A stretch of DNA of 16,071 bases. It comes from a virus. Lineage: Duplodnaviria > Heunggongvirae > Uroviricota > Caudoviricetes. The translations under genes and the position numbers were made by a program. Every line of letters starts with the position of its first letter. Position 1 is the stretch's first letter. Location of the stretch: IMG/VR virus record IMGVR_UViG_2711768058_000013, positions 1 through 16,071 of that record; one strand, 5' to 3'. Shown in pieces: positions 1,051 through 16,071 of this stretch. The notes beneath the pieces were generated by a model. It was given only the letters and a program-made list of their open reading frames with translations, was not told the origin of the DNA and did not search any database.

Positions 1051-1200
1051 GGATCAGTAAGCGTAACTCTGGTAGGCTCACTCTGCTTTTGCGCTAAAGC
1101 AGTGGGCCGTGGTTCGCTTGTGACCAGTAAGCATGAGCGAATGGCTGGCAGGTGCTACCAACACCCACCAGCCGCCCATTTTCACAGCAGGAAACCGCCA

Positions 1201-1404: not shown

Positions 1405-1520
1405 GTCTTTTTCCCTTCTGGTTAACATGACATACCAATAACTCTTGTCTAAAAAGCCAGCAAGATAAAAAGTCAGTATTCACGACCACCAGCGTGTTTA
1501 CTGTACTGCACCAAGTTTAC

Positions 1521-1548
1521 AGGTACAAAAAACCGCTCAGCGGCTGGT
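1521..1548 (-). terminator. Putative intrinsic terminator on the minus strand (hairpin plus T6)
   Basis: Read on the minus strand: AGCCGC-TGA-GCGGTT stem-loop (4 GC pairs plus G.U and A-T) followed by TTTTTT (complement of the A-run at 1527-1532). Lies between cassette 1 and the late-strand small gene. Confidence 0.35.
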
Positions 1549-1663
1549 TTAAGTTGTGTGGCGAAGTAACCACTCTTAACACGATACAATAGTTTTTGCG
1601 TACGCGTTAGTGGTTATGTAAACTTTCTCCATATAAAAACAGCAAAGAAGCGGATATTTTGAA

Positions 1664-2233: not shown

Positions 2234-2283
2234 AAGTATTATACAAGCCAGTCTTTGATATATCTGGAAAGTTAGATGAAGAT

Positions 2284-2691
2284 TTGTTCAATAAAATAAA
2301 TAAAGAAGGACTTTCTGATGTCGTTTTGGTAAAGAATGAATACAGAACTATTAATGCGCCAGATGTTAACGCGGCTATTATTCCTAAAGAAAGTACTTTA
2401 CGCTTAGTACCAAACCATGGCCCCAACAATGTCCTTGGATGGATAAAATCTGTCTCAAACTTCTTTAAAGAAGATAAAAATGGAGGTTATGACTTAATAA
2501 AAATAAAATTCAAAGAGCCAGAGACAGGATTCACAAGACAAGTTGACCTTCAAACTTCAAATGTAAGGCTCGATGGGCTGGAAAAAACATTTATCAAAAA
2601 GAGTGTAATAAATGGTTTTTCTTCGCGCTTAAAGGATTCTTATGATAGTATTAACATGGAGTTTGTGAATAAGATTATCGAGGTCATGTGA
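2284..2691 (+). CDS. Hypothetical protein (cassette 1, ORF B), possibly the frameshifted C-terminal part of ORF A
   Basis: 135-aa ORF with no ATG start (first start codon is TTG at 2284 with a weak RBS). Its frame is open back to 2206, overlapping the last 28 nt of ORF A. The stop at 2689-2691 is followed by GAGG and the ATG of ORF C. Confidence 0.45.
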   Translation: MFNKINKEGLSDVVLVKNEYRTINAPDVNAAIIPKESTLRLVPNHGPNNVLGWIKSVSNFFKEDKNGGYDLIKIKFKEPETGFTRQVDLQTSNVRLDGLEKTFIKKSVINGFSSRLKDSYDSINMEFVNKIIEVM

Positions 2692-2698
2692 GGCTAAT

Positions 2699-3274
2699 AT
2701 GATTAGTATATTTTCACATTTATTTAGACCGTTTGGTTACCTTTTTATTAAGGGAATTAGTGGTAAGTGCGCATACGATTTTTATGCACCTGCAGGGCTT
2801 GCTGTGATTTCTTTTTTTTACTTTTATTTATTTAAAATACCCACATCAGACCTACTAAAAGATGGCGGCTTTATTAAGTCTATATCTGGATTTGTATCAA
2901 ATCTGCCAGGTTTTTATATAGCAGCTCTTGCAGCAATAGCCACTTTCAACAGAGAACAAATTGACTACCCTCTGATAGGAACTAATGGCACGCCTTTTAT
3001 TAAAATTACACGAACAAAAGAAAATGGTAGAATTGTTGACACTCAAGAGAAACTTACCAGAAGATTATTTCTGTGCATGTTATTTTCATTTTTAACTGCC
3101 CTCAGCATATGCATAGTGATTTTCAACGCTTTTATCACACCACTAATAAACATACTGAATAATGATATAGCAAACTGGTGCTATATCATTATCTTTTTAT
3201 TCCTTACATGGCAAATGCTTGTTTCAACATTTTTTGGACTATACTATCTTGGTGATAGGATTCACATTAATTAA
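2699..3274 (+). CDS. Integral membrane protein, about four predicted TM helices (cassette 1, ORF C)
   Basis: 191-aa ORF with GAGG RBS 6-7 nt upstream of ATG 2699. Four long hydrophobic stretches (AGLAVISFFYFYLF; FYIAALAAIATF; LFLCMLFSFLTALSICIVIF; WCYIIIFLFLTWQMLVSTFFGLYYL). Its 3' end overlaps the convergent Q gene by 8 bp. Confidence 0.6.
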   Translation: MISIFSHLFRPFGYLFIKGISGKCAYDFYAPAGLAVISFFYFYLFKIPTSDLLKDGGFIKSISGFVSNLPGFYIAALAAIATFNREQIDYPLIGTNGTPFIKITRTKENGRIVDTQEKLTRRLFLCMLFSFLTALSICIVIFNAFITPLINILNNDIANWCYIIIFLFLTWQMLVSTFFGLYYLGDRIHIN

Positions 3275-3644
3275 CTACCATAATGGGGTTTATAGTTATT
3301 ATTACACCGCTGATAAACCCCATGGCAGTCTGCAATTCCTTCCTAATTGTGCCATCTGAACATCTTCTCTTCTTGGCAATAGTGCGTAATGAGATACCAA
3401 TAACAAAGTGAGCTATGATCAGCTCATATTCCTCTGGTTTATACTTTCGCAACCGAGCCACACAACCGTCTATCATGATGCCTTCATCATCATCACACTG
3501 GAGACGTGACTTTTTACCGTGTGGTAAAAGTCCCTTGAAACCAGCCGCTATCGGCTGCCAGTCCACACCACTATTTTCTGCTGCAGCCCATGCTCCCCAG
3601 CGGTCCAATACTTCATACATATCACGCATCAGCTTTCTCCACAA
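3267..3644 (-). CDS. Late-gene antitermination protein Q (QuuD-like short Q family)
   Basis: 125-aa ORF. The N-terminal WGAWAA motif, the Cys-containing middle and the C-terminal HTH-like segment resemble, as I recall it, the short Q antiterminators of E. coli prophages (DLP12 QuuD type). Last gene of the coupled minus-strand operon. Confidence 0.75.
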   Translation of the reverse strand: MWRKLMRDMYEVLDRWGAWAAAENSGVDWQPIAAGFKGLLPHGKKSRLQCDDDEGIMIDGCVARLRKYKPEEYELIIAHFVIGISLRTIAKKRRCSDGTIRKELQTAMGFISGVIITINPIMVVN

Positions 3645-3646
3645 AA

Positions 3647-4642
3647 TCAGGCCAGCACGCCAATTGCCAGCGCACGATCGATAAAACGAAATATCAGCTC
3701 CAGCTGGGAGCCATACTTCTCTTCAAATGCCACGGTATCCGCATGCAGCTCGTCGTGATGCTTTCTGCACAAAGGCAACACAAAAAGGTCATGCGCTTTT
3801 GTTCCCATTCCACCCTGACCGTGACCTATCAGGTGGTGGGGATCATCAGCGGGCTTTCCACAACATGCACACGGCTGTGTCTTAACCCAGCGCGTGTACT
3901 TTTCATTAACCCAGCGGCGACGTTTTGGGCGTAACATAAAAGACTCCGGCGACTCCGGATCCACTTTCAGCGCCAGCACCTTTTTCGCTTTATTCTGGAT
4001 GATGCTGGTGGCCGGAACCGAAGGAACAAGGTCACTCTCCCGGGTGACAGACGGCACAACAGGCTTCGGTAATCTCAGTGCCTTACGGGCTGCACTTTCA
4101 GGTAAGGCATCCGCCAGATCATTACGAACCAGCCACCAGCACAGTTCCGGCATTGTCACAACGTGACTGTCATCAAAACCGAGATCCCGACGCACGACAG
4201 ACAACACCCAGCGGGCACAGTTATCCGTTGCCATTGATTCCAGCCGTTCCGTGAACTGATCGCGCAGCTGGTTATCGCAGTGCCAGCACAGACGGATTGC
4301 GCCCGGCGCGTGACGCATTGTGGTCATGTTCTCGCTGTGCCAGTCGGAATGAGGCCACTGGCAGCCTTTTTCACGAAGTAACCAGCTTTCAAGACATTCC
4401 ACGCCACCAGCACGACGGATCACTGCCTCATTGCGGAACACGGCCCGAACGGCAGGATCATCCGCCAGCGGTTGTGATGCCGCCGGAACAGCACCACTGG
4501 CGAAAGATGAATAACGTTCCGGCTCAGGCTCCAGCAGGACACGCCCCTGCATAAACAGGGGCATCAGCTCTGAACCTGGTCTGAACAATACGATCCCCAT
4601 ACGCGGGGCAATTTCAGGGGTCAGTAGTGCTCTCACGGTCAC
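3647..4642 (-). CDS. DUF968-like prophage protein (YdfU family) with C-terminal Cys/His cluster
   Basis: 331-aa ORF with C-terminal CACCGKP...HHLIGHG...H...LCRKHHDELH metal-binding-like cluster. Sits between the KilA-N gene and Q as in Nin-region equivalents. Family name is from memory. Confidence 0.55.
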   Translation of the reverse strand: MTVRALLTPEIAPRMGIVLFRPGSELMPLFMQGRVLLEPEPERYSSFASGAVPAASQPLADDPAVRAVFRNEAVIRRAGGVECLESWLLREKGCQWPHSDWHSENMTTMRHAPGAIRLCWHCDNQLRDQFTERLESMATDNCARWVLSVVRRDLGFDDSHVVTMPELCWWLVRNDLADALPESAARKALRLPKPVVPSVTRESDLVPSVPATSIIQNKAKKVLALKVDPESPESFMLRPKRRRWVNEKYTRWVKTQPCACCGKPADDPHHLIGHGQGGMGTKAHDLFVLPLCRKHHDELHADTVAFEEKYGSQLELIFRFIDRALAIGVLA

Positions 4643-4643
4643 C

Positions 4644-5486
4644 TCAATGAACGGTATCGAGCAGCTTTAACAGCTCAGGGAATCGGGATTCGAAGAAATG
4701 CGGCTGCGTCTCGCGCGGATTTGCGGGACTGGTGATGTTCTTGCCAAACATGCAACCTTTCGCTGTCAGCGACCAGAATTTTTTGATGTTGTTAATCGCG
4801 GTACGGCTGTATCGTTCGCGTTGTTCAACGATCCCCAGCTTCGCCATCTGGTGATATGCCTGATTAGCCGTCAGGCGGATACCATACTGTTTCAGCAGTG
4901 CACTCAGTGACAGTGTAGGACGACTTGAGCCATCGTGTGCATCAGCAGGAGCATCAATGGCATAGCGCGGTGCCAGATTCGGTAAGCCAACAGCCTCCTG
5001 AAGTTTCTGACAGGCACCAAGCACTGATGAGTTAGACAGATTTAACTCCCGGCGCATAAAGTCCAGCAGAATCACGCCAGCCTGCATCTTGTCAGCAGCC
5101 TGCCAGGATAATTTTTCCGGTGCGCTGGTTACCATGTCGAAAGTGCGGATCACCTTCAGATGGAATGACGGGCTGATCCACATTGCATAGGCATACACCA
5201 GGTCCTTACAGACATATGTTCCGCCATTCCGCCCTTCTATTTTACTGACAGGTTTACTACCCAAATTTTGGGTAGTTTCATTGAATGAACCGACACCCAG
5301 ATTTTGGGTATCGATCAATTCCTGAACCAGCTCAGTAATCTGTTGGCTGGAAAGAAACTTTCCCGGCTCCTTGGTTCTGGCATTTGCACCAGATGCTACT
5401 GCTGCGCGATGCAGATCGTTCAGGCTGTAACGCCCATAAGCATCACGACGAACTTCAATACCATCAATGACCATCAGATTATTCAT
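4644..5486 (-). CDS. KilA-N domain-containing protein
   Basis: 280-aa ORF. N-terminal region (SLNDLHRAA..., GGTYVCKDLVYAYAMWISPSFHLKVIR) resembles the KilA-N DNA-binding domain. Tightly packed with neighbouring genes. Confidence 0.6.
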   Translation of the reverse strand: MNNLMVIDGIEVRRDAYGRYSLNDLHRAAVASGANARTKEPGKFLSSQQITELVQELIDTQNLGVGSFNETTQNLGSKPVSKIEGRNGGTYVCKDLVYAYAMWISPSFHLKVIRTFDMVTSAPEKLSWQAADKMQAGVILLDFMRRELNLSNSSVLGACQKLQEAVGLPNLAPRYAIDAPADAHDGSSRPTLSLSALLKQYGIRLTANQAYHQMAKLGIVEQRERYSRTAINNIKKFWSLTAKGCMFGKNITSPANPRETQPHFFESRFPELLKLLDTVH

Positions 5487-5505
5487 ACTTCGTTTCTCCT
5501 CTTAA

Positions 5506-5895
5506 TCAGGCGGCTGCACCCGCCGTTTTCTCGTACTTACTGATAGTGATCTCGACCTTCCCTTCCGGGATAACCGGTCCCCACTCCACCAGCATTCTTT
5601 TCACCTGACTGTCGTCTTCCCACACCCCCGCGTGGGTCAGGGCGTCAAACAGCGCCTTGTTATAGTTGTCCAGATCGCGGATCCGGTTATCCGGAGGAAA
5701 CAACACGATCTCCACTGAAGCAGGTGCCGACGTTGGTTTTGGCAGACGACGTAACTGCTCAACTATTGCTGCACACGCCGCGCTCTGGAATTTTCGCCCC
5801 GCCGCGCTTATCAGGCTCTTACCAGCAAACGCCCCTTTGTTGGGGTGTCGCCAGTACGTGTTCACGCTGGGCGGAAAAGGCAGGATCAGCTTCAT
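5506..5895 (-). CDS. rusA: Holliday junction resolvase RusA
   Basis: 129-aa ORF with the RusA-type motif RIRDLDNYNKALFDALTHAGVWEDDSQV (catalytic Asp cluster). Start ATG overlaps the stop of the upstream gene (ATGA). Confidence 0.8.
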   Translation of the reverse strand: MKLILPFPPSVNTYWRHPNKGAFAGKSLISAAGRKFQSAACAAIVEQLRRLPKPTSAPASVEIVLFPPDNRIRDLDNYNKALFDALTHAGVWEDDSQVKRMLVEWGPVIPEGKVEITISKYEKTAGAAA

Positions 5896-6218
5896 ACTTT
5901 CAGGCCCCTCTCATGTAACCAGTGGACTGCACGCAGTCTGGCGTTTTCCTCACCGGCAAGCAGTGCGCGGATAATCCCGGCTGCCTCACTGTCGTCATCC
6001 TTCACTGTGGTATGAAGCGTGATACCCCGGGCCACGCCACGCTTTATCGTGATGACGCCTTTTTTCTCCAGTGCGCGAAGATGCTCCACCGCTGCATTCA
6101 CCGAACGGTATCCCAGCATGGTTGCCACCTCCTGATTGGTTGGCGGGAAACCACGTTCTTTCTGATAAGAAATCAGCATATCCAGCACCTGCTGCTGGCA
6201 TTGAGTTAACGTCGTCAT
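5892..6218 (-). CDS. LexA-type DNA-binding domain protein, no S24 peptidase domain
   Basis: 108 aa from ATG 6216-6218, which overlaps the TAA of the upstream gene (TAATG). LTQCQQQVLDMLISYQKERGFPPTNQEVATMLGYRSVNAAVEHLRALEKKGVITI matches the LexA N-terminal winged-helix pattern. The track ORF extends to 6251 without an ATG. Confidence 0.6.
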   Translation of the reverse strand: MTTLTQCQQQVLDMLISYQKERGFPPTNQEVATMLGYRSVNAAVEHLRALEKKGVITIKRGVARGITLHTTVKDDDSEAAGIIRALLAGEENARLRAVHWLHERGLKV

Positions 6219-6712
6219 TAAGCCCCCACGTAATTCCCTGACAGATACCACTCTTCACCCGATGCAGCACGCTTGCTGCTTTTCCGTAAGCACTGCTCAC
6301 GACGAGCCAGAAAATTGTTTCGTTCTGGCTGGGAGTGGCTTTCTCGGAATGCCGCCATCCACACCGTTGCAGCACGACGGTATAAGCCCCTGGACTCCAG
6401 TTCTTCAGCCTGGCGGGTCAGGCACAAAATCACCCGTGGATCGTTAGTGCCGACATAGAAATTGCGCACAGATCTGGTTTCACGAACTGGTTGTGGCTCC
6501 GGCCCCTGCGCTCTCTCAGTCAGGCGCGGGAAATGTCTGCGTGTATCTCCTTCACAACGGTGAGCCACACTCCCACTCTGACGTAACTTGCTTGCTGACT
6601 GCAGAACGCGCTGCCGTGAGTAATCTGCAAAAGCATCCGCAATGTCTCCGGAAGTACAGCCCGGATGGGCTTCAATGAATTTCTGAACTTCATTCAAAAG
6701 ACTCATGCTCAC
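6218..6712 (-). CDS. yfdN: PerC-family transcriptional regulator (yfdN-like)
   Basis: 164-aa ORF. AEELESRGLYRRAATVWMAAF...RREQCLRK resembles the PerC/Pch signature (AExLExxGLWRRAAxRW). 164 aa equals the length I recall for K-12 YfdN. Start overlaps the stop of the O-like gene. Confidence 0.5.
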   Translation of the reverse strand: MSMSLLNEVQKFIEAHPGCTSGDIADAFADYSRQRVLQSASKLRQSGSVAHRCEGDTRRHFPRLTERAQGPEPQPVRETRSVRNFYVGTNDPRVILCLTRQAEELESRGLYRRAATVWMAAFRESHSQPERNNFLARREQCLRKSSKRAASGEEWYLSGNYVGA

Positions 6713-7650
6713 CCCCTGAATCCTGCCGGGATCTGGCTGTAGTCCACATTGTCGTAACTGGCTTTGAAGTACGGGTCTTCGCGTTTTTCTGTGTACGTGC
6801 TGACGGACGGCGATAAGCGCAGGGAAAGCTCATCCCATTTTTCCCGCAGCTTCGACGGGCTGAGCACGTTACGGCACCAGAACGGATCGCGGCTGACGCG
6901 GCTGTACATCTCGCAGATTTGTTTGTGAGTACGACCATCCTGCACACACATCAGGCGAATTTCGTTTGCCCAGGCTGTCCAGTTCGGTTCTTTGGGACGA
7001 ACCACCTCGCCGTCACATTCGGCGGCCTGCTCGTACAGGGCGATGATTCTTTTCCAGAGCCACTGTGCGCAGGTCAAATCATCCTGCGTTCCCCACTGGC
7101 GCTTTTTAGGGCTGAATACAACCGCATCAGGATGGCGAGTTAAAAACTCCTGTTCAGCCGTCTGCGTGTCCGGTTGCGAAGCGTCCGGACGAGAAGTTTT
7201 TTTATCTGACGGATCATGTTTTGATTTTACTGACGGATCCCCGCCAGATTCTGACGGGTGAAAACCCGCTTTTTTGCCAGATTTCGACGCATCAAATTTT
7301 GACGGGTCAGATTTTGATGTGTCAGATTTTGACGGGTCATAATCTGACAGTTGAGAAAATGCCGCTGCCTGAAGCTTCGCAACGTTAAGCTGATAAACAT
7401 TCGACGCATTGCGGTTACCCTGGCGACGCGCCTTACGCGTTAACCAGCCTTCTGCTTCCAGCCGTGCGATAGCCGTTCTGACGGTACTCATCCCCGCGCC
7501 AATCTGACGGGCAATAGTTTCAATTGATGGCCAGCACACACCTTCGTCATTACTGAAATCAGCCAGGCGGGCCATAATTGCCACGCTGGATAATTTCATG
7601 CCTGATGCAGCGCAACCATCCCATACATAGCCGGTTAATTTAGTGCTCAT
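6709..7650 (-). CDS. Phage replication initiator, O-like (yfdO-like), with internal origin iterons
   Basis: 313-aa ORF with N-terminal winged-helix (SSVAIMARLADFSNDEGVCWPSIETIARQIGAGMSTVRTAIARLEAEGWL), a central low-complexity K/S/D/P-rich linker encoded by DNA iterons, and a C-terminal domain. Analogous to lambda O, where ori lies inside the gene. Confidence 0.7.
   Translation of the reverse strand: MSTKLTGYVWDGCAASGMKLSSVAIMARLADFSNDEGVCWPSIETIARQIGAGMSTVRTAIARLEAEGWLTRKARRQGNRNASNVYQLNVAKLQAAAFSQLSDYDPSKSDTSKSDPSKFDASKSGKKAGFHPSESGGDPSVKSKHDPSDKKTSRPDASQPDTQTAEQEFLTRHPDAVVFSPKKRQWGTQDDLTCAQWLWKRIIALYEQAAECDGEVVRPKEPNWTAWANEIRLMCVQDGRTHKQICEMYSRVSRDPFWCRNVLSPSKLREKWDELSLRLSPSVSTYTEKREDPYFKASYDNVDYSQIPAGFRG
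7204..7352. repeat. Iteron array, about 8 direct repeats of a 15-bp unit (consensus near GATTTTGACGGGTCA); putative prophage origin
   Basis: Copies include atctgacggatca, ttttactgacggatcc, agattctgacgggtg, agatttcgacgcatca, aattttgacgggtcag, attttgatgtgtcag, attttgacgggtcat, aatctgacagttg. Located inside the O-like coding sequence. Confidence 0.65.
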
Positions 7651-7998
7651 GACCGACCTCTACTTCCCTGAATTTACGACGAAACTGTTCGAGCGGGCTG
7701 AAGCACTCATGCTCATAGCCTTCGCGGAGGTAGATAACTCGTTGTGTTTCCGGCTCCCAACGAATGACTCTGACGGGCACTCCGTAGTGATCTTTGAACC
7801 AGCGGTTAACTTGTCGCAAAGGACTGTCTCCTTCTGCCGGTTGAAATCACCCACAGCCCACTCAGCAAAGCTGTGGGTTACAATTTCCCTGTCACCTGGT
7901 ACATTAACTGCATAGCAATACTCCACCTTCGCTTTTCCACCCGGTACAGGAAGCGCAATCAGTTGCGAGCGACGGTAGTGTGTTGTTAAACTGTTCAT
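7640..7998 (-). pseudogene. Small gene split between two reading frames (frameshifted gene or two nested small genes)
   Basis: Frame A: ATG 7996-7998 overlaps the stop of the upstream CII-like gene and runs to 7660 (112 aa, C-terminal half low-complexity). Frame B: open from 7846, AAGGAGA Shine-Dalgarno (complement of 7827-7833) plus TTG 7817-7819, stop TAA 7640-7642 overlapping codons 3-4 of the O-like gene. Both frames are translationally coupled to a neighbour. Confidence 0.4.
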
Positions 7999-8603
7999 GC
8001 GTTAGTTTCTCCACAGTCACGACACGCCACGGCGCCCGGAGCTGCACACTCGCGGGCGTCATTACTTTCTGAAATGCAAAAGATTTTGTAGACCAGTGCT
8101 GCATGCTCCTGCAGCTTCGAAATTGAGAGATACAGCTCGTCGTTAATTGCTGTCTTCTCATGCGGTTCCACCACACCGTCTTCGATTGCCGAACGAATCT
8201 GTCTGGAATAACTGCCAATCTGTTCAATGACTTCCAGCAGGCGCTGGTTAATATCGGCGTTGTCCACATCCTCGACGTCAGGAAGAGACACAAAGACGCC
8301 ATTTGCAGACTGCGCCACAGCGTCAGCAATGAAGTGAGTTCCACCAGCACGTTGCAAAATCATTGCCCATCCCAGCGGGAAAATCTGATCGCCATCGGCA
8401 CGAAGGCGGTTAAATAATGCGTTTTCTGTTACATCCAGCCAGTCAGCTGCTTCAGCGTAACCACCCGGCAACGCTGCGATAGTTTTTCTGACAGCTTTCA
8501 CGTACCACTCAGGCTGTTTTTCTACTTTCCAGTGATGCTTACCCACGGTTAGCCTCATCGTTCTGTGGTTTCTGTTAATCGATTTATCCATTAGATTTTT
8601 CAT
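7995..8603 (-). CDS. CII-like lysogeny regulatory protein (CP76/YdaT-type), putative
   Basis: About 200 aa. Sits immediately downstream of the cro-like gene, overlapping it, and upstream of the replication gene, the canonical cII position. ATG at 8603 or 8591; the track ORF extends to 8660. Family assignment is from weak recollection only. Confidence 0.45.
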
Positions 8604-8784
8604 AAAGCTCAGGTTTAAATGGCAACCGTCCGCAAGTTCTATATGCAGCTTCTGCTGCACGTCCTTTTGGAATTAACTGGCCCGGACGGTTTCGCCACTG
8701 ATAAACGGCTTCAGTTGTTATGCCGAAAAAAGCAGCAACTTTCTCAATACTGCCGAAGTAGCTTTCGATATCGTCAGTTGTCAT
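8584..8784 (-). CDS. cro: Cro-type HTH repressor (Cro/YdaS-like)
   Basis: 66-aa ORF, divergent from the cI-like repressor across a 97-bp operator region. HTH-like segment FFGITTEAVYQWRNR. Confidence 0.7.
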   Translation of the reverse strand: MTTDDIESYFGSIEKVAAFFGITTEAVYQWRNRPGQLIPKGRAAEAAYRTCGRLPFKPELYEKSNG

Positions 8785-8881
8785 ACGCCCTCCAAACTAA
8801 GTTTTATTAGATGCTAATTACAAATCTATCTTTGGTCAATAAAAACTAAGATTACTTAGCAATTCAAGAAATGGTGCTCCT
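8785..8881. promoter_or_regulatory. OR-like divergent promoter/operator region between cro and cI
   Basis: 97-bp AT-rich intergenic region. Operator-like repeats AACTAAG at 8795-8801 and 8844-8850; the second lies in the palindrome CTAAG-ATTA-CTTAG (8846-8859). The same heptamer recurs downstream of cI. Confidence 0.6.
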
Positions 8882-9508
8882 ATGGAAACGGTTGGTCAGC
8901 GTATAAAAGCTCTGAGAAGAGTTACCGGAACGTCCCAGAAAGAATTGGGTAAATTTTGTGGAGTAAGCGACGTTGCTGTGGGGTACTGGGAGAAAGACAT
9001 CAATACCCCTGGTGGGGAGGCACTTTCGAAATTAGCGAAGTTCTTCAATACGTCAATAGATTACATTCTTTATGGTGCTGAGTTTGAAGGCAAACTCGTC
9101 ACAAACATGCGCAGAGTTCCTGTAATATCGTGGGTTCAGGCTGGGCAGTTTACTGAGTGCAGGGCAGCAGAAGTGTTTAGTGAAGTGGACAAGTGGGTAG
9201 ATACATCATTAAAGATTGGTGATAACTCATTTGCATTAGAGGTTAAAGGTGACTCCATGACTAACCCTAATGGCCTCCCAACAATACCAGAAGGCGCAAC
9301 AGTGATTGTAGATCCAGATGCAGAACCTCGTCATGGAAAAATAGTCATCGCTCGACTTGATGGAACAAACGAAGCTACAGTAAAAAAATTAGTCATCGAT
9401 GGCCCTCAAAAGTTTTTAGTGCCATTAAATCCTCGGTATCCCAACATCCCTATCAATGGTAATTGCCTTATCATTGGTGTAGTCAAAGGAGTTCAATACG
9501 AACTCTAA
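8882..9508 (+). CDS. cI: CI-type prophage repressor (XRE HTH plus S24 LexA-like autopeptidase domain)
   Basis: 208-aa ORF. N-terminal HTH (QRIKALRRVTGTSQKELGKFCGVSDVAVGYWE), C-terminal S24 motifs with catalytic Ser in GDSM and Lys in ATVKKL. Divergent from cro. Confidence 0.85.
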   Translation: METVGQRIKALRRVTGTSQKELGKFCGVSDVAVGYWEKDINTPGGEALSKLAKFFNTSIDYILYGAEFEGKLVTNMRRVPVISWVQAGQFTECRAAEVFSEVDKWVDTSLKIGDNSFALEVKGDSMTNPNGLPTIPEGATVIVDPDAEPRHGKIVIARLDGTNEATVKKLVIDGPQKFLVPLNPRYPNIPINGNCLIIGVVKGVQYEL

Positions 9509-9517
9509 GACCTCTCT

Positions 9518-9590
9518 TCTCTAACTAAGGCACCGAACTAAGAAAAGTTTGGTGTTTTCTCTTGCCATAATAACTAAGTTAAGTTAGATT
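9518..9590. promoter_or_regulatory. OL-like operator cluster downstream of cI
   Basis: Three further copies of AACTAAG (9523-9529, 9536-9542, 9572-9578) in the AT-rich spacer between the cI stop and the next plus-strand ORF, in the position equivalent to lambda OL/PL. Confidence 0.45.
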
Positions 9591-9693
9591 TTATATCAAA
9601 AATAACGAACAGGCAGGACGCCCACGAAGTAGCCGCCTGGGGCATATGAAGTCCAGGATGATTCGTTGAGTCATGTTGTGCCACTAGGCACTC

Positions 9694-9990
9694 ATGTTAA
9701 AGCAGGTGTATGAAATGAAAGTCCAGATTTTAAACAATAGTGGTGAAGTCGTTTGGTCATACGACATAGCCGCCCATGTAGATCAGAGCGGCGATAGCTG
9801 GGCCAATGGGAAACATCAGATTATGGCTGGAGTTGTGTTCTCTTTACGCCGTGCTTTGGAACAGGCTGAAGTATTTCCATCAGACCCTGAATGGAAATGG
9901 CCTTTTTCTATTTGTCCAAATTCGGAGAGCACATTTCAGAAAATTGGTCAGAAAGTCGCACTCGAAGAGCATCAGCCAACTGTTTCCTGA
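9694..9990 (+). CDS. Hypothetical protein, first gene of the putative leftward early operon
   Basis: 98-aa ORF. The in-frame ATG at 9715 has a better RBS (AGGTG 6 nt upstream) and may be the true start. No recognisable family. Confidence 0.5.
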   Translation: MLKQVYEMKVQILNNSGEVVWSYDIAAHVDQSGDSWANGKHQIMAGVVFSLRRALEQAEVFPSDPEWKWPFSICPNSESTFQKIGQKVALEEHQPTVS

Positions 9991-10003
9991 TTTTTTCAGG
10001 TAA

Positions 10004-10153
10004 CTAGTCGGCATCGCAGAAACAACAACGCTCGATCATGTTGAAAGCCGATTCGTAGAACTGTTTCTGCTGAGTGTCGCTGAGACAGGAAAAGAGCGAC
10101 GTTACGATGATTTTATTAATTGCATTATCAAGTTCTTTTTCATCAAAAGTCAT
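10004..10153 (-). CDS. Possible small protein (49 aa) not in the ORF track
   Basis: Manual translation of the minus strand: MTFDEKELDNAINKIIVTSLFSCLSDTQQKQFYESAFNMIERCCFCDAD. AAGGA Shine-Dalgarno 7 nt upstream of ATG (complement of 10161-10165). Below the usual length cutoff. Confidence 0.3.
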   Translation of the reverse strand: MTFDEKELDNAINKIIVTSLFSCLSDTQQKQFYESAFNMIERCCFCDAD

Positions 10154-10408
10154 TTGATTTTCCTTTTATGTATACGGGCTTAAAAGGATACCACCGAGCC
10201 TGAAGTGGTGAAAAGACAGGCACATAACAGCTAAGTATTTTCAACCAGAGAGAATCCTTAGCGTTGTGGTGAATGCGGCTCAGCGCACGCGGGTTAAGGT
10301 TGAGGCTGACAGTCGACCTTCTGTGGATACCCACCCGTCTGGTGTGCAACCTTCGCCAGGCACCGGGAGGCACCCGGCACCACAACTTTATGCTGTGTGT
10401 AGTCCTGG

Positions 10409-10455
10409 CGGTACCAGTTTGTACCCTTGCTTCCGGCTGGTACCGTCCTTTTTAC
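10409..10455 (+). terminator. Putative intrinsic terminator or structured RNA element
   Basis: Inverted repeat CGGTACCAG (10409-10417) / CTGGTACCG (10437-10445) followed by TTTTT (10449-10453). The 19-nt loop is long for a terminator. Lies in a GC-rich segment with no convincing coding frame. Confidence 0.35.
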
Positions 10456-10590
10456 AAAACAGAGAAGAGCATCACCGGACGACGGGCTCATAACCCAATC
10501 CATCCGGGCGGCTGCCACCGCAGGTGTTCTTCTCTGTTTTGTGGAGAAACTAATCGGCCTTGCAGGGTCGATATGATGAGGAGCAGCAAA

Positions 10591-10953
10591 ATGGCTAGTG
10601 AACGCAGTACTGATGTGCAGGCATTTATCGGGGAGCTGGACGGCGGCGTATTTGAAACCAAAATCGGCGCAGTTCTCAGTGAAGTCGCTTCCGGTGTGAT
10701 GAACACGAAAACCAAAGGTAAGGTCTCACTCAACCTGGAAATCGAACCATTTGATGAGAACCGTGTGAAAATCAAACACAAACTCTCATATGTTCGCCCG
10801 ACTAACCGCGGGAAAATTTCCGAAGAAGACACCACCGAAACGCCGATGTATGTCAATCGCGGTGGTCGCCTGACTATTCTGCAGGAAGACCAGGGACAAT
10901 TACTGACTCTTGCCGGTGAACCTGACGGAAAACTACGCGCAGCAGGTCATTAA
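10591..10953 (+). CDS. yfdP: YfdP-like prophage protein, function unknown
   Basis: ATG 10591 with GAGGAG Shine-Dalgarno 7 nt upstream gives 120 aa, the length I recall for K-12 CPS-53 YfdP, and it sits directly upstream of a yfdQ-like gene. The track ORF start at 10273 lies in non-coding-looking GC-rich sequence. Confidence 0.6.
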   Translation: MASERSTDVQAFIGELDGGVFETKIGAVLSEVASGVMNTKTKGKVSLNLEIEPFDENRVKIKHKLSYVRPTNRGKISEEDTTETPMYVNRGGRLTILQEDQGQLLTLAGEPDGKLRAAGH

Positions 10954-11018
10954 TATCGTTCTTAATTAACTGATTATTTATCTCATCACTGAATATCTTT
11001 ATATAGTGAGGACTTATT

Positions 11019-11843
11019 ATGTCTCAGAACTTAGACGCAACCGCAATTAATCAAATCCATGCCCTTATTTCTGCTCAGGGTGTTAATGAAATTATCAGTA
11101 AGATTGGTGCCGATGCTGTGGCATTGCCTGAGAATTTCCGCATTCATGATCTGGAAAAATTTAATTTAAATCGTTTCCGTTTCCGTGGTGCGCTTTCCAC
11201 TGCCAGCATCGATGACTTTACCCGTTATTCTAAAGATCTTGCAGATGAAGGCACCCGCTGCTTTATCGATGCCGATAATATGCGTGCCGTCAGTGTGCTT
11301 AACCTGGGTACCATTGATGAGCCAGGTCACGCAGATAACACTGCCACTCTCAAACTGAAAAAGACAGCACCGTTCTCTGCCCTGTTGTCTGTTAACGGCG
11401 AGCGTAACTCCCAGAAGTCACTGGCAGAATGGATTGAAGACTGGGCCGACTACCTTGTGGGCTTTGATGCTAATGGTGACGCTATTCAGGCAACAAAAGC
11501 GGCTGCGGCAGTCCGTAAAATCACGATTGAAGCAAACCAGACCGCTGATTTTGAAGATAATGACTTCAGCGGCAAACGCTCCCTGATGGAATCTGTCGAA
11601 GCGAAGACCAAAGACATTATGCCAGTGGCATTTGAATTTAAATGCGTTCCGTTTGAAGGTCTGAAAGAACGTCCGTTTAAATTACGCCTCAGCATTATCA
11701 CTGGCGATCGTCCTGTACTGGTTCTGCGCATTATTCAGCTGGAAGCGGTGCAGGAAGATATGGCTAACGAATTTCGTGATCTGCTTGTTGAGAAATTCAA
11801 AGACAGCAAAGTAGAAACCTTTATTGGTACTTTCACCGCCTGA
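11019..11843 (+). CDS. yfdQ: YfdQ-like protein (DUF2303 family), function unknown
   Basis: 274-aa ORF with GAGGA RBS. Length and position (between yfdP-like and yfdR-like) match my recollection of K-12 CPS-53 yfdQ. Confidence 0.7.
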
Positions 11844-11855
11844 TTTCATTACTGC

Positions 11856-11880
11856 AAATGCCCCTGCGGGGGCATTTATG
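11856..11880 (+). terminator. Putative intrinsic terminator downstream of the yfdQ-like gene
   Basis: AAATGCCCC-TGCG-GGGGCATTT: 9-bp stem with GC-rich core and short U-tract (TTTAT), 13 nt after the stop codon. Confidence 0.4.
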
Positions 11881-11970
11881 GAAACGTAATTAACTCAATA
11901 ATCACCGGATGGTGATGGCTTCCTTTTACCCAAACTCAGCGCGGTGCAGCGCATATACGTGGAGAACAAA

Positions 11971-12507
11971 ATGTCATTTATTAAAACTTTTTCCGGGAAG
12001 CATTTTTATTATGACAAGATAAATAAAGACGACATCGTGATTAACGATATCGCGGTTTCCCTTTCAAATATCTGTCGCTTTGCAGGGCATCTTTCACACT
12101 TCTACAGCGTCGCCCAACATGCGGTGCTTTGCAGCCAGCTGGTGCCGCAGGAATTTGCTTTTGAAGCGTTAATGCATGATGCAACAGAAGCATATTGCCA
12201 GGACATCCCTGCACCACTGAAACGACTTCTTCCTGACTATAAACGGATGGAAGAAAAAATAGACGCCGTAATCCGTGAGAAATACGGGTTACCTCCTGTT
12301 ATGAGCACGCCAGTGAAATATGCCGATCTCATTATGCTGGCAACCGAACGTCGCGATCTCGGGCTTGATGATGGCTCTTTCTGGCCTGTACTGGAAGGCA
12401 TCCCGCCAACAGAGATGTTCAAAGTTATTCCACTGTCGCCAGGCCATGCCTACGGGATGTTTATGGAACGCTTTAACGGGTTATCGGAGTTACGCAAATA
12501 CGCATGA
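11971..12507 (+). CDS. yfdR: HD-domain phosphohydrolase (YfdR-like 5'-deoxynucleotidase family)
   Basis: ATG 11971 with GGAGA RBS gives 178 aa. HD motif (SVAQHAV...ALMHDATEAY). The length I recall for K-12 YfdR is also 178 aa. The track ORF starts at GTG 11944. Confidence 0.7.
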   Translation: MSFIKTFSGKHFYYDKINKDDIVINDIAVSLSNICRFAGHLSHFYSVAQHAVLCSQLVPQEFAFEALMHDATEAYCQDIPAPLKRLLPDYKRMEEKIDAVIREKYGLPPVMSTPVKYADLIMLATERRDLGLDDGSFWPVLEGIPPTEMFKVIPLSPGHAYGMFMERFNGLSELRKYA

Positions 12508-12541
12508 GTCTTTCAACTGCACAACCACTGGAGGGATAGCA

Positions 12542-12736
12542 ATGAACAACTTAATGACAACTAAACAGGTCGCCGACTTCTGTGGCGTTTCAGTATCAAC
12601 AGTACTTCGTTGGAACAGCGTAAACAGGAGGACTGGCCAGAAATACAGACCAGATTTTCCAGATCCTGATATAAAATCCTGCCCAAATAAATGGGCATCA
12701 CACAAGATTTATAGGTTTGCGGGTGTTATTGAGTAA
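12542..12736 (+). CDS. Excisionase / AlpA-family HTH protein (Xis-like)
   Basis: 64 aa from ATG 12542 with GGAGGG RBS 6 nt upstream. TTKQVADFCGVSVSTVLRW is the typical AlpA/Xis (MerR-like) HTH signature. Confidence 0.7.
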   Translation: MNNLMTTKQVADFCGVSVSTVLRWNSVNRRTGQKYRPDFPDPDIKSCPNKWASHKIYRFAGVIE

Positions 12737-12750
12737 GGTAGGTAGCACAG

Positions 12751-12900
12751 ATGTTAACTGACGCTTCTATAACACAAAGCAAACCTAATCTGACTGCACG
12801 CCCTACGCCAGAAACAGATCAAAGTTTAAAATATGCACCGTCCGGAGTGACGATTTTTGTAATATACAGTAGCCTCTATGGGTCATGTGACAGTGTATAG
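12751..12900 (+). pseudogene. Possible remnant of an integrase 5' end (49-aa ORF)
   Basis: Manual translation MLTDASITQSKPNLTARPTPE...: the first 12 residues fit the conserved N-terminus of P4-type integrases (L-T-D-x-x-I-x-x-x-K-P), after which similarity is lost. Lies 15 bp downstream of the excisionase. Confidence 0.3.
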
Positions 12901-12911
12901 GAAAAACAGAA

Positions 12912-13745
12912 GTGATCGATGACCCGTTACCAACGAATTGGAAAGATCTCCAGAACGGAGTCCAACGCATCTTCCGCAATGTTGGCTTATATGCAGAAGT
13001 CGAAGCCAATGTAGAGACTCCACGTGGTTCGGTGAATGTGGATGTTCTCGCAATAGATCCCAAGAGCGTAGATAAAATCAGATACATAGTAGAATGTAAA
13101 AACTGGAGTAACTCTGTGCCTCAGAGCGTAGTCCATTCGTTCACTACGGTGATGCATGAAACTGGGGCTAACATTGGTTTTATTATTTCAAAACATGGGC
13201 TTCAGCAAGGAGCAAAGCAGTATACACAAAACACAAATATCACTGGTATGACATATCTAGAATTTCAAAAGAGATATTTTGAGGCTTGGTGGAAAAGATA
13301 TTTTTGCCCACTTATAGGTGATGCTGCTGACAAGGTTCTTTTATACACTGAAGAATTCAACCATCAGCGAGACCGAGCTTATAGGAATCTTACCCCACAT
13401 AATAAAAAGATGTTTGATGATTTAAGGAGACAGGAAGGTGGCTCAATAATGATTTTATCGATGTTCAACTACATGTCGATATCGAGAGGACTAAAAACAG
13501 GAACATTTTTAAACGTTCCAAAAAGCCTAGATGACTTTAAAGCTATAGTGCTCTCTCAAATAACTCCTCATATCCAATGGAATTGCGACACATTCCGTGA
13601 ACTGTTGAATACGATTTTAAAATACTTAGCAGATATTAAATCAGAATTTGAAATGATATTCGGGGGAGATATTTTTGAACAAACAGATAATATCAGCGGA
13701 GTAACTCTTGATGGTCCTCCTTTGGGAGGGGATATTTATCTATAA
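12912..13745 (+). CDS. Mrr-like PD-(D/E)xK restriction-endonuclease-domain protein with unknown C-terminal domain (cassette 2, gene 1)
   Basis: 277-aa ORF with GTG start. N-terminal NVDVLAID...YIVECKNW...VVHSFTTVMHETGANIGFIISKHGLQQGAKQY matches the Mrr catalytic-domain pattern (D...D...(E/Q)xK...F...G.FI...A). The C-terminal 170 aa are AT-rich and unrecognised. Confidence 0.65.
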   Translation: MIDDPLPTNWKDLQNGVQRIFRNVGLYAEVEANVETPRGSVNVDVLAIDPKSVDKIRYIVECKNWSNSVPQSVVHSFTTVMHETGANIGFIISKHGLQQGAKQYTQNTNITGMTYLEFQKRYFEAWWKRYFCPLIGDAADKVLLYTEEFNHQRDRAYRNLTPHNKKMFDDLRRQEGGSIMILSMFNYMSISRGLKTGTFLNVPKSLDDFKAIVLSQITPHIQWNCDTFRELLNTILKYLADIKSEFEMIFGGDIFEQTDNISGVTLDGPPLGGDIYL

Positions 13746-13835
13746 TTATTAAACTACGCTTAACATTGTCGAATGTTCGATTCATCACTCGAAGCAGAAA
13801 TAAATCAACCTTTTATTTCTAATTAGGAATTTTTA

Positions 13836-14777
13836 ATGGCTACATTTTTCATCAATAACAAAAAAATTTCGATTAGCTCTCTGAAATATAATAGTAAAGA
13901 AATTCAATTAGAAGCAATGCGTAGTTGGTTTCTTGAAAATTATGAAGATCCTGCAAACAGTTGCCCTTATGAGTCACGAGAAGGGGGGTATATTTATATT
14001 TATGGAGGACCATATGATGCAAGTGAAGTGCTTCAAGAAAAATTTGGCGGCTATGTAAAAGATGATTATATTCAAGAGATTGTCGATGATTTACAAGAAA
14101 TTTGTTATGAATGGTCCGGTAACTCCAGTAACGTAGAGGGATGGTATGATGAAGATTTATATAATGTTGTTACAACATCAAAAGAACCTTATACTAACTT
14201 CTACGAAAACATTGCTAAAATACGTTCACTTTCCACACTTAATATTAGTGAAAAAGATAAATCTCATTTTCTTGGCATTTTATACACAAATATTATCACT
14301 GCCCTAGAAACGTTATATGTTGAGCTATTTATCAATTCTATAGAAAAAGATAATTCTTTTTTCATAAATTATATACAAACAGGAACCGGAAACTTTAAAG
14401 CAAGTAAGTCATTGATTTTAAATGCATTCAAGCATGAGTCAATAGTAGAATTAAGAGAACGGTTAGTAAAAGAAATTAAAGAGCACTTAATAAATTCTAG
14501 TTGGCATAGCACTGAACAAGTTATTAAGCGTTATAAATCAACATTTGGTATTAAGGTACAAAGTGACTGGCCTATATCAGAGATTGAACATGCAACTATA
14601 ATTCGAAATCATTTAATCCATCGGGGGGGCAAGGACAAAAATGGAGATCCAGTAACAATTACAGAAGATAATCTAAATGAGTTACTTGAACTATCAGTAT
14701 TACTATGTGAGAAATTGCATACCAGTTTGAACAAAGTAGTAGATGGAAAAAATGGTGGCAGCGAAAGCGAATTTTGA
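13836..14777 (+). CDS. Hypothetical protein with C-terminal HEPN-like R-N-x-x-x-H motif (cassette 2, gene 2)
   Basis: 313-aa ORF, very AT-rich, AGGAA RBS 8 nt upstream of ATG. C-terminal ATIIRNHLIHRGG contains R-N-H-L-I-H, which fits the HEPN RNase signature. No other recognisable domain. Confidence 0.6.
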   Translation: MATFFINNKKISISSLKYNSKEIQLEAMRSWFLENYEDPANSCPYESREGGYIYIYGGPYDASEVLQEKFGGYVKDDYIQEIVDDLQEICYEWSGNSSNVEGWYDEDLYNVVTTSKEPYTNFYENIAKIRSLSTLNISEKDKSHFLGILYTNIITALETLYVELFINSIEKDNSFFINYIQTGTGNFKASKSLILNAFKHESIVELRERLVKEIKEHLINSSWHSTEQVIKRYKSTFGIKVQSDWPISEIEHATIIRNHLIHRGGKDKNGDPVTITEDNLNELLELSVLLCEKLHTSLNKVVDGKNGGSESEF

Positions 14778-14847
14778 TATGAAAGCCTTTGGAATGACAG
14801 CCAAGACATTTAACCAGATTCATCTGCTCATTAATCAAAGCAAATTG

Positions 14848-16071
14848 TCAGTTTGAGTCTAAACTGACACAAGTAACGAGTGATTCAACCCTCTCCCACC
14901 ACGCTTGGTAGGCTTTACGCTGTTCTTCTAGATAATTGCTCTTGTCATAAACTTGCCATACCCCTGGCAGTTTATGACCGAGCATAATTTCTGCGATATG
15001 AGGCGCAGTAAGATCAGAAAAATTTGTTCGAGCTGTACGTCTCAAGTCATGAAGAGACCAATGAGGGAATTGATATCCTAAACGCCGCCATGCGTACTGC
15101 ATTAAATTGTAAGGCAGCGACTGCAATGATGTCCGACCAACGGGTTCCCTGCTTCCTTCCTTAGTAAAAAGCATATCGGAACCATTGTTCATAGAGATAG
15201 CGTACTTTATAAGCTCTTCAACCGGTTCAATAATGGGCCGCTTTAGCGGTTCGCCTGTTATCTCCCCAGTCTTATGTCGTTCTGGTGGTACAGTCCATAC
15301 TTTATTAATGAAATCAAAATCGTCCACCCGGGCGGTAATTAGCTCTGAACTACGGCAACCAAAATGCAGCAATAGTTTAATGAAGGCCCGGTATTTAGGA
15401 ACCATTCGAGAACCATCGATCGCAGCATAAAGGATTTTAATTTCATCGTGTGTCAGAAACCGTTTCTTCTGACCTTTACGGATATCCATATCTTTACCCG
15501 TGATGTCCGACAGCGGGCGAGTTTCAATAAGCTTTCTCTTATACGCCCAGACATGGGCCTGCTTTGCGTTAATTAGCAATCGGTCTGCTATTGCTGGAGT
15601 CTTAGTGCTAAGAGGCTCCAGGACTTCTAACCAATCATGCAATGTAGCTGCATCGTGAGGGATATTCCCGATTTTAGAGAACAGGTGCAGCTCAAACGAG
15701 CGGAGTATCTGTTCAGAACCCTTTTTATTTTTTACACAATATGCTTCATACCAGGCAAGGATCACAGACTCTACCGTCATGGCTTCAGTAGCTTTTCGTT
15801 TTTCAGCCTGCTTGACCAATCGTGGATTACGGTTTGACTCGAGTTCACCACGGAGACGGATAACTTCTTCTCTGGCCTCTTTTAATCCAGTTGCCGGGTA
15901 AGTTCCGATATCAAGACGCTCACCTTTCCCTGCCCATTGATAACGATATTGGAACACTACGCGACCTTTCGGGGATACTCTGACAGACAGACCATCACGA
16001 TCGGATTTTACCAAAACCTTATCACGTTCCTTTCCAACGACTGAACGCAACCACGCATCAGACAGCGCCAT
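14848..16071 (-). CDS. int: Tyrosine recombinase / phage integrase, P4-type
   Basis: 407-aa ORF whose ATG is the last three bases of the window. N-terminal arm-binding-type region (LSDAWLRSV...VRVSPKGRVVFQYRYQWAGKGERLDIGTYP), catalytic region with HDLRRTARTNF and C-terminal MLGHKLPGVWQVYDKSNY containing the presumptive catalytic Tyr. Confidence 0.9.
   Translation of the reverse strand: MALSDAWLRSVVGKERDKVLVKSDRDGLSVRVSPKGRVVFQYRYQWAGKGERLDIGTYPATGLKEAREEVIRLRGELESNRNPRLVKQAEKRKATEAMTVESVILAWYEAYCVKNKKGSEQILRSFELHLFSKIGNIPHDAATLHDWLEVLEPLSTKTPAIADRLLINAKQAHVWAYKRKLIETRPLSDITGKDMDIRKGQKKRFLTHDEIKILYAAIDGSRMVPKYRAFIKLLLHFGCRSSELITARVDDFDFINKVWTVPPERHKTGEITGEPLKRPIIEPVEELIKYAISMNNGSDMLFTKEGSREPVGRTSLQSLPYNLMQYAWRRLGYQFPHWSLHDLRRTARTNFSDLTAPHIAEIMLGHKLPGVWQVYDKSNYLEEQRKAYQAWWERVESLVTCVSLDSN

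Follow-up and report, generated by a model that had tools for sequence, protein, structure and literature searches.

Structured RNA modules related to STnc100 and DicF in the leader upstream of yfdP in an SfV/e14-like prophage

Introduction

The closest described relatives of the element analyzed here, a structured RNA encoded upstream of the yfdP gene in a stretch of 16,071 nucleotides from a virus of the Caudoviricetes (IMG/VR record IMGVR_UViG_2711768058_000013, positions 1 to 16,071; hereafter the window), are small RNAs (sRNAs) of the STnc100, PasD, and DicF types. PasD1 and PasD2 of enteropathogenic Escherichia coli E2348/69 are RNAs of 172-173 nt, which have been confirmed by Northern blotting and depend on Hfq for their stability (PMC8550237). 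In strain EDL933, most of the 11 annotated copies of STnc100 are transcribed and one was positive by Northern blotting (PMC5331693). EcOnc27, located downstream of stx2B and designated sRNA103 in enterohemorrhagic E. coli (EHEC), is an Hfq-bound sRNA (PMC12711010). A 2026 preprint relates PasD to STnc100 and mentions neither DicF nor a pseudoknot (bioRxiv 10.64898/2026.05.13.724894). DicF exists in a 53-nt form, resulting from termination and processing by RNase E, and in a 72-nt form generated by RNase III (PMC5069750, PMC9438474). The literature on RNAs of the STnc100 and PasD types reports no established function for any member.

A previous examination of the window (the sequence-only reading) had pointed to a GC-rich segment at 10260-10590 that ends in a hairpin and a T-tract and might correspond to an sRNA or a leader. 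Our analysis indicates that the leader of yfdP consists of several distinct conserved RNA modules and is not a protein gene. The element is of a known kind, related both to STnc100/PasD and to DicF, but it scores below the two Rfam cut-offs, and its combination of the two modules follows a new order. Our favored explanation, which we regard as probable, is that the gap upstream of yfdP is a non-coding leader in the early-left operon of a prophage and that the unit at 10263-10453 is an sRNA of the Hfq-associated STnc100/PasD type, produced through partial termination within the operon.

Results

A covarying core with a pseudoknot

The first module of the unit has the following components.

10263-10386, plus strand: structured core RNA of 124 nt, identified by an STnc100 match, our own covariance model (R1), and covariation
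10263-10271 with 10378-10386, plus strand: closing stem P1 of 9 bp, followed by the junction AAU
10275-10279 with 10285-10290, plus strand: P2, with a bulged A at 10287
10296-10302 (AAGGUUG) with 10347-10353 (CAACCUU, in the loop of P4), plus strand: pseudoknot
10337-10344 with 10354-10361, plus strand: P4
10363-10367 (CCGGG) with 10373-10377 (CCCGG), plus strand: P5, with the loop AGGCA

The core is a multi-helix junction comprising P1, P2, a variable P3, P4, and P5, which is locked by the covarying pseudoknot. Nucleotides of the junction and of the loops are invariant, and P5 is an invariant CCGGG-AGGCA-CCCGG hairpin abutting the 3' strand of P1. Four helices (P1, P2, P4, and P5) were defined from 30 representative sequences, and model R1 was built from the resulting alignment. 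For P2, a register with a conserved bulged A fits both clades of the family better than the register proposed in Rfam. In the window, R1 detected a single copy, with scores of 92 bits on the plus strand and 6 bits on the minus strand. The element was assigned to the plus strand because of these scores and of the presence of G-U pairs.

Alignment of 61 distinct viral sequences to R1 showed that 95.3% of the cells were paired, as opposed to 27-40% in a control in which the partners were slid by 1-3 columns. Twenty-six of the 36 pairs had changed on both sides, and none of 500 shuffles performed as well. The pseudoknot is absent from R1, yet 91.5% of its cells were paired in the same sequences, and five of its seven pairs covaried. 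The segment following P2 was complementary to the loop of P4 in every subfamily, with at least 8 different sequences, including CAGUUAA/UUAACUG in E. coli K-12, AAGGCUG/CAGCCUU in phiES15, and UGGUUAU/AUAACCA in another group. Among genomic hits, 80 of 92 had matched pseudoknot partners of at least 5 bp, versus 29% for mismatched partners. Covariation supported the four helices and the pseudoknot in 98 distinct genomic sequences also, bringing the total to more than 150 distinct relatives. The folding energy of the core as a single sequence is not exceptional (z = -1.7); the reality of the structure rests on covariation.

The Rfam model of STnc100 (RF02076) matched the plus strand at 10233-10455 over its full length (model positions 1-206) with a score of 41.2 bits and an E-value of 2.5e-7. 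At the curated gathering level, Rfam returned no family match, and ARAGORN detected no tRNA or tmRNA in the window.

Reading frames of the leader are not conserved

Both strands carry overlapping open reading frames (ORFs), as the sequence-only reading had pointed out; their lengths are 49-106 codons. Two of them match protein families.

10294-10518, minus strand: candidate ORF of 74 codons matching phrog_3651
10427-10576, plus strand: candidate ORF matching phrog_33599

The leader could accordingly have been taken for a small protein gene, consisting of the minus-strand ORF, the plus-strand ORF, or a frameshifted hypothetical gene called by PGAP. The two PHROG families are of unknown function (E = 8e-50 and 1e-15), several phage records list hypothetical proteins at this location, and PGAP reports a pseudogene. 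Against this possibility, the ORFs of the leader had no Pfam match, and PGAP itself flagged a frameshift. Every frame was broken in most relatives, the best one being stop-free in just 20 of 55 distinct cores. The homologue in phage ST64B differed by insertions or deletions of 1, 1, 22, and 2 nt, which are not multiples of three, and contained stops in five of the six frames. In the downstream hairpin, synonymous changes accounted for 8-36% of the changed codons in any frame, compared to 48% in the yfdP control. The minus-strand ORF spans only the C-terminal half of the 162-position profile of phrog_3651. An ORF antisense to yfdP, considered as the missing N-terminal half, was ruled out because it had no PHROG match.

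Because the frames are broken, the insertions and deletions shift the frame, and the changes are mostly non-synonymous, phrog_3651 and phrog_33599 most likely record a conserved nucleotide sequence that has been called as ORFs. The presence of a protein gene appears extremely improbable, and both the frameshifted hypothetical of PGAP and the ORFs annotated in phage records are probably wrong. Together, the full-length but sub-threshold STnc100 match on the plus strand, the strong covariation of the structure across prophages, and the lack of a conserved frame spanning the region in relatives support the proposal that the segment is an sRNA or a leader rather than a gene.

A seed-like linker and a DicF-like terminator

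The core is followed by a second module.

10387-10406, plus strand: single-stranded linker of 20 nt, with the seed-like motif GCUGUGUGUAG at 10392-10402
10407-10453, plus strand: intrinsic terminator with an 11-bp stem, a 19-nt loop, and UUUUU at 10449-10453

The stem of the terminator is formed by GGCGGTACCAG (10407-10417) and CTGGTACCGTC (10437-10447), with a free energy of -20.5 kcal/mol; C and TTTTT come directly after it. The inverted repeat at 10409-10445 in the sequence-only reading falls within this hairpin, which, as the 3' end of an sRNA-like unit, has the role foreseen for it. A simple terminator scan missed the hairpin since its loop limit was 8 nt. The sequence-only reading did not distinguish the several RNA modules of the segment, in which the hairpin is part of a DicF-like module separate from the upstream core.

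ST64B, sal3, phiES15, and phiNP, all identified by BLAST independently of this motif, carry GCUGUGUGUAG almost unchanged, whereas the stems and loops of their terminators differ. The terminator and DicF are very similar in their 5' arms (GGCGGUACCAGUUU and GGCGGUAUCAGUUU, respectively; GGCGGUAxCAGUUU). In addition, GCUGUGUGUAG together with a terminator occupies the slot of dicF in 10 dicB-operon loci; in operons of the Rac-SA53 type, this slot is upstream of the core and of dicB. On the basis of this sequence similarity and of the occupancy of the dicF slot, we assign the 3' module to the DicF family, as a unit whose seed is different and whose order relative to the core is reversed. The match to the Rfam model of DicF (RF00039) was weak (10394-10448, 15.7 bits, E = 1.9). 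Among 98 untruncated copies of the core, 74 adjoin a DicF-type unit: canonical DicF directly upstream in 41 cases, the variant upstream in 10, and the variant downstream, as in the window, in 23.

In a test of pairing with the translation initiation region of ftsZ, shuffled sequences gave duplex energies as good as those of the variant, and the result was the same for DicF itself, indicating that this test has no power. Sites complementary to the seed did not occur beyond chance elsewhere in the window. In the minimum free energy (MFE) fold, the seed region (10391-10406; UGCUGU, UCCU) pairs with the Shine-Dalgarno (SD) and start region of yfdP (10579-10588, AGGAGCAGCA). This predicted pairing suggests that translation of yfdP might be self-repressed on read-through RNA. 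The complementarity between the seed and the SD sequence is not kept in ST64B.

Citrobacter phage phiNP (fetched locus L006, 2380-2500) retains the seed, the terminator, the long downstream helix, and yfdP, and has an unrelated sequence in place of the core. The modules are therefore exchangeable.

Comparison with STnc100, PasD, and DicF

The element and STnc100 have in common a closing stem that encloses several hairpins, a 3' linker with an intrinsic terminator, a prophage location, and the invariant motifs GUGAAU and CACCGGGAGGCACCCGGCAC. Each part of the STnc100 architecture was recovered in the window: P1, the GAAU junction, P2, a penultimate hairpin, the CCGGGAGGCACCCGG hairpin at the 3' strand of P1, the linker, and the terminator. 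In a joint alignment including the copies of 933W and Fels-1, P1, P2, P4, P5, and the pseudoknot covaried across both clades. The two differ in P2 (CCCCC/GG-GGG in STnc100 and GCGGC/GC-CGC here) and also in P3 and P4. Canonical STnc100 copies are located in the late region, whereas the copy of the window is in the early-left region, downstream of the repressor gene, and is followed by a DicF-like linker and terminator, unlike STnc100. The consensus structure of STnc100 in Rfam is devoid of the pseudoknot and has P2 in a different register.

PasD, designated EcOnc13 in EHEC, has the same order of core, seed, and terminator as the window. The 172-nt PasD2 RNA starts exactly at the 5' strand of P1 and keeps P1, P2, P4, and the pseudoknot (AAUGAUC with GAUCAUU). 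The seed of PasD2 identified by RIL-seq, UGUGAG, is located in the linker just before the terminator, which is equivalent to the linker of the window; the two seeds differ in sequence. PasD has a degenerate P5 and scored only 18.7 bits with our own model. Unlike the element of the window, PasD is in the late region, next to an esterase gene, and has its own promoter-like site (TTGACT ... TATTAA).

With the dicF region of the Qin prophage, the locus shares an sRNA unit that lies within an early-left operon, has the terminator 5' arm GGCGGUAxCAGUUU, and adjoins the same core. The context of DicF is likewise found, since the unit is intra-operonic and early-left, with a Rho-independent terminator and an adjacent structured spacer. 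A helix of a size suitable for RNase III follows the terminator in both loci, and the layout of ydfABC-dicF-dicB in Qin parallels that of the window. The differences concern the order of the modules (the core precedes the sRNA here, whereas in Qin dicF comes first, followed by the core and dicB), the seed (GCUGUGUGUAG here and UUUCUGGUGACG in DicF), the downstream gene (yfdP instead of dicB), and the score with the Rfam model of DicF (15.7 bits, compared to 76.7 bits for DicF of K-12).

Distribution of the core

Bona fide STnc100 copies were found in phage 933W, between stx2B, located 75 nt upstream, and an esterase gene (208 bits), and in Fels-1 of Salmonella, in which three copies (138, 83, and 59 bits) are located between Q and the holin gene. 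In 933W, the anti-sRNA AsxR is encoded antisense, directly past the terminator of the copy downstream of stx2B (L007, 2706-2760, minus strand), and overlaps a match to the AgvB model. Sub-threshold STnc100 copies are present downstream of the repressor gene, in the early-left region, in ST64B, 118970_sal3, Cronobacter phage phiES15, and a Klebsiella phage. A 24-nt core pattern matched at least 120 IMG/VR contigs, corresponding to 71 distinct cores. The largest subgroup is the dicF-dicB spacer of dicB operons of the Qin and Rac types, including that of E. coli K-12 (L131, 1949-2085); the K-12 spacer corresponds to a complete core whose P1 has 15 bp. In the ban operon of phage P7 (L132, 2304-2616), the core is located among tRNA genes, upstream of terB, and a tRNA-Sec-like match scoring 46.6 bits (cut-off of 47) lies directly before it. 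BLAST matches over the core were also obtained in D6, an Aeromonas phage, and an Actinobacillus phage.

Scanning one genome per species for the P5 motif identified at least 120 loci, mostly in Enterobacterales, with genera including Kosakonia, Citrobacter, Enterobacter, Klebsiella, Pantoea, Erwinia, Rahnella, and Serratia. Our own covariance model confirmed 99 copies of the core in these loci, some of them in tandem arrays. A plasmid of Pantoea sp. App145 (L181, 946-1995) carries two units, each comprising three head-to-tail cores, one linker, and one terminator. Further tandem arrays were observed in loci L211, L176, L179, and L167. A more divergent core occupies the same position, ahead of a DicF-like terminator and yfdP, in mEp460 (L009, 2849-2995) and in another locus (L096, 11951-12097). 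In this type, P1 is kept, and P2 and P5 are replaced by hairpins with complementary loops (GCUGAU and AUCAGC), a complementarity that suggests a different tertiary contact.

The layouts of these loci bear on the possibility that the core is a cis-acting sensor, i.e. a riboswitch-like element or a protein-binding attenuator that determines how much transcription terminates and how much continues into yfdP and beyond and, in a variant proposed for the dicB-type loci, controls translation of the gene located directly downstream. A multi-helix junction, a covarying pseudoknot, and invariant junction and loop nucleotides are typical of aptamers. In a first layout, represented by the window, phiES15, 933W, and Fels-1, a terminator is found within ~20 nt after the core; in a second one, represented by dicB, terB, and others, a ribosome-binding site is located 15-40 nt after the core. 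The core often precedes genes toxic to the host, such as dicB and kil. However, no conserved alternative pairing, either antiterminator or anti-SD, was found, and the terminator is upstream of the core in dicB operons. Arrays of three cores with a single terminator are also unlike expression platforms, and relatives of the element accumulate as stable Hfq-bound sRNAs. We regard a sensor of this kind as unlikely.

Operon context and source of transcription

The window corresponds to the immunity and early-left region of an SfV/e14-like prophage. The features of the plus strand that surround the element are as follows.

8882-9508, plus strand: gene for a repressor of the LexA family
9562-9590, plus strand: putative PL-like promoter (TTGCCA-17 nt-TAGATT), detected by promoter scan
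9572-9589: putative operator, the repeat AACTAAGTTAAGTTAG, overlapping the PL-like promoter
9694-9990, plus strand: orf33
10154-10590, plus strand: non-coding gap of 439 nt ahead of yfdP (leader)
10191-10221, plus strand: conserved upstream box, CCAC-CGA-GCCUG-AA-GUGG-UGAAAAGA-CAGGC
10591-10953, plus strand: yfdP (yfdP/orf32 in the PGAP and SfV annotations), with the SD sequence GAGGAG at 10579-10584

The order of genes on the plus strand is repressor gene, orf33, gap, yfdP, yfdQ, and yfdR; in SfV and in identical E. coli loci, which are closely related prophages, xis and int come next. The start of yfdP is at 10591, not 10593, and the true gap extends from 10154 to 10590. The higher GC content that the sequence-only reading reported for 10260-10590 is real (0.565, compared to 0.455 for the window), ranking at the 94.5th percentile among stretches of equal length in the window, with flanks at 0.403 (9900-10259) and 0.500 (10591-10950). 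The 441-nt query 10160-10600, which is 99.8-100% identical to SfV and many E. coli chromosomes, had matches in 75 phage records and in 2785 of the 5426 complete E. coli genomes searched.

Two copies of an operator-like repeat family (AACTAAGT...TTAG) are located between cro and cI (8794-8812 and 8843-8859), and a third copy, at 9572-9589, is located directly past the terminator of cI. These repeats are likely an OR/OL pair defining PL, in the expected PL/OL arrangement. The PL-like site at 9562-9590 is probably the start of the early-left transcript that carries the structured element, which is on the same strand as yfdP. The operator repeat and the promoter-like site thus place the element ~660 nt inside the early-left transcript and agree with the early-left location previously assigned to the segment.

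Elements of the nut type, to which the sequence-only reading had also alluded, were not recovered: no plus-strand match to a lambda-type boxA (CGCUCUUUA-like) was present in the leader (9991-10600), and across the window 14 boxA-like matches were found for 14.1 expected, with no boxA or boxB beyond chance. The position in an early operon upstream of terminators is common to the element, to the put sites of HK022, and to lambda nut. This raised the possibility of a put-like processive antitermination, in which the nascent core would bind RNA polymerase, allow it to pass terminators, and replace an N protein. The complex conserved fold of the core and its location in the early-left operon upstream of a terminator are compatible with such a role, as is the fact that no N-type gene was noticed here, although no systematic search was made; ORFs between cI and yfdP had no Pfam match. 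In contrast, the core is present as a single copy in the window, with none in the early-right direction, and is located ~660 nt from the promoter rather than directly downstream. The put site is a V of ~70 nt made of two stem-loops (PMC9378689), whereas the core is a closed junction with a pseudoknot, and the covariance model gave no match in HK022 at E <= 1. The core also follows the dicF terminator in dicB operons and is found in the Q-antiterminated late transcripts of Stx phages and Fels-1. Antitermination by the core appears very unlikely.

The helix downstream of the terminator

Two further structures were predicted between the terminator and yfdP.

10449-10547, plus strand: long hairpin with a 25-bp basal helix (10449-10473 with 10523-10547) and a branched top, from the MFE fold
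10553-10560 with 10565-10572, plus strand: small hairpin predicted by folding, with the yfdP SD sequence downstream

The region 10386-10600 folds at -92 kcal/mol (z = -5.4), and none of 200 shuffles reached such a low energy. The block containing the long hairpin is 96% conserved ahead of yfdP in mEp460, cdtI, and Stx2c phages. Comparison with ST64B revealed one compensatory double change from G-C to A-U and one change from G-U to G-C in the long helix; this pairwise comparison was used because alifold with five sequences, one of which was cut short, did not recover the helix. Since the 25-bp helix includes the U-tract of the terminator, it forms only on read-through RNA. Based on its predicted size, it is probably a substrate of RNase III.

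The core and the long helix could act only in processing or stability, as cleavage signals for RNases III, E, or P or as protective structures, with no role in trans. The 72-nt DicF end generated by RNase III maps, by our own mapping, to approximately position 1954 of L131, within the 5' strand of the 15-bp P1 of the K-12 core, and the 25-bp helix directly follows the terminator in the window. The P7 copy of the core lies in the ban operon with tRNA genes around it, and the 933W copy shares its transcript with tRNAs; the tandem arrays of the core resemble arrays of processed RNAs. However, a conserved pseudoknotted junction is more than a cleavage site requires, P1 is only 9 bp long in the window, and a search with ARAGORN detected nothing tRNA-like there. 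A role as a pairing seed also explains the conserved single-stranded GCUGUGUGUAG better. An exclusive role in processing or stability seems improbable to us.

Discussion

We favor the assignment of the unit at 10263-10453 to the STnc100/PasD-type sRNAs on the strength of the full-length STnc100 match, the covariation, the lack of a conserved frame, the operator repeats and promoter-like site upstream, the frequent adjacency of the core to DicF-type units, and the precedent of DicF, and because its relatives, PasD, STnc100, and EcOnc27, are experimentally supported sRNAs. The RNA structures with their conservation and covariation, the strand, the lack of a conserved frame, the operon context, and the modular link between the core and DicF-type units are results of the analysis; we infer the termination efficiency, processing, Hfq binding, trans-acting regulation, and targets in the following scheme. 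Transcripts initiated at the PL-like promoter would reach the terminator at 10407-10453, where a fraction would stop. Trimming of the 5' end would generate an RNA of ~190 nt containing the core, the seed, and the terminator, and an alternative cut between the core and the seed would generate a DicF-like RNA of ~65 nt. Either RNA would bind Hfq via the terminator and its U-tail, and the seed would pair with target mRNAs. Read-through RNA would form the 25-bp helix at 10449-10547, probably be cut there by RNase III, and then express yfdP and the downstream genes.

Several observations weigh against this scheme. The scores obtained with the Rfam models of STnc100 (41.2 bits) and DicF (15.7 bits) are below the gathering cut-offs of 47 and 48 bits, respectively. 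The large loop of the terminator and its run of just five U make its efficiency uncertain, and no target was predicted for the seed. No convincing sigma-70 promoter adjoining the core was found by promoter scan and inspection, which revealed only weak hexamers: the scan gave no plus-strand site in 9600-10600, and manual inspection of the upstream box revealed no conserved -10 sequence. Production of the RNA would therefore be expected mainly under derepression of PL. For expression, the argument draws on relatives and not on this variant. Finally, a pseudoknotted core, its position immediately upstream of ribosome-binding sites in dicB-type loci, and tandem arrays exceed the needs of a base-pairing sRNA. 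This excess complexity points to a function of the core beyond that of an sRNA.

It is possible, although we hold this tentatively and rate it as rather unlikely, that the 124-nt core represents an unrecognized class of structured RNA with its own job, such as binding of a ligand, of a protein or RNA polymerase, or self-processing. In that case, STnc100, PasD, EcOnc27, and the DicF-adjacent spacers would all carry a single mobile RNA device, which would control or process the transcripts of its host phages. Copies of the core are spread over Enterobacterales, in prophages and in plasmids. Should the core have an activity of its own, the dicB operon of Qin in K-12 would be a tractable test system, and the copy adjacent to stx2 would be relevant to the biology of Shiga-toxin phages. 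If the core is only an sRNA scaffold, the element is an ordinary prophage sRNA with a new seed.

A single covarying pseudoknotted fold ties together STnc100, PasD, the RNA downstream of stx2, DicF variants, and the dicF-dicB spacer of K-12, and the exact leader is carried by about half of the complete E. coli genomes searched. The structure model improves on the current Rfam model by the different register of P2 and by the pseudoknot. In the papers that could be searched, we found no description of the architecture with its pseudoknot, of the equivalence between the core and the dicF-dicB spacer of K-12, or of the tandem arrays.

Additional features of the locus

In the CPS-53 prophage of K-12, the leader is absent, and the part in common is limited to the last ~30 nt before yfdP. 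Upstream of the gap, an ORF of 49 codons on the minus strand (10004-10153) has a strong ribosome-binding site and matches phrog_3311 (E = 3e-32). It converges on orf33 and is antisense within the presumed early-left transcript; no promoter was identified for this ORF.

The upstream box at 10191-10221 consists of two interleaved inverted repeats (CCAC/GUGG and GCCUG/CAGGC), with loop lengths that fit an H-type pseudoknot on the plus strand. It is ~96% identical in Klebsiella phages that are otherwise unrelated. In the loci fetched, we found 56 occurrences and 9 sequence variants of the box, with all differences in the loops, and it was always located 35-45 nt from the start of a leftward ORF. 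The box also precedes the dicF region and some ORFs.

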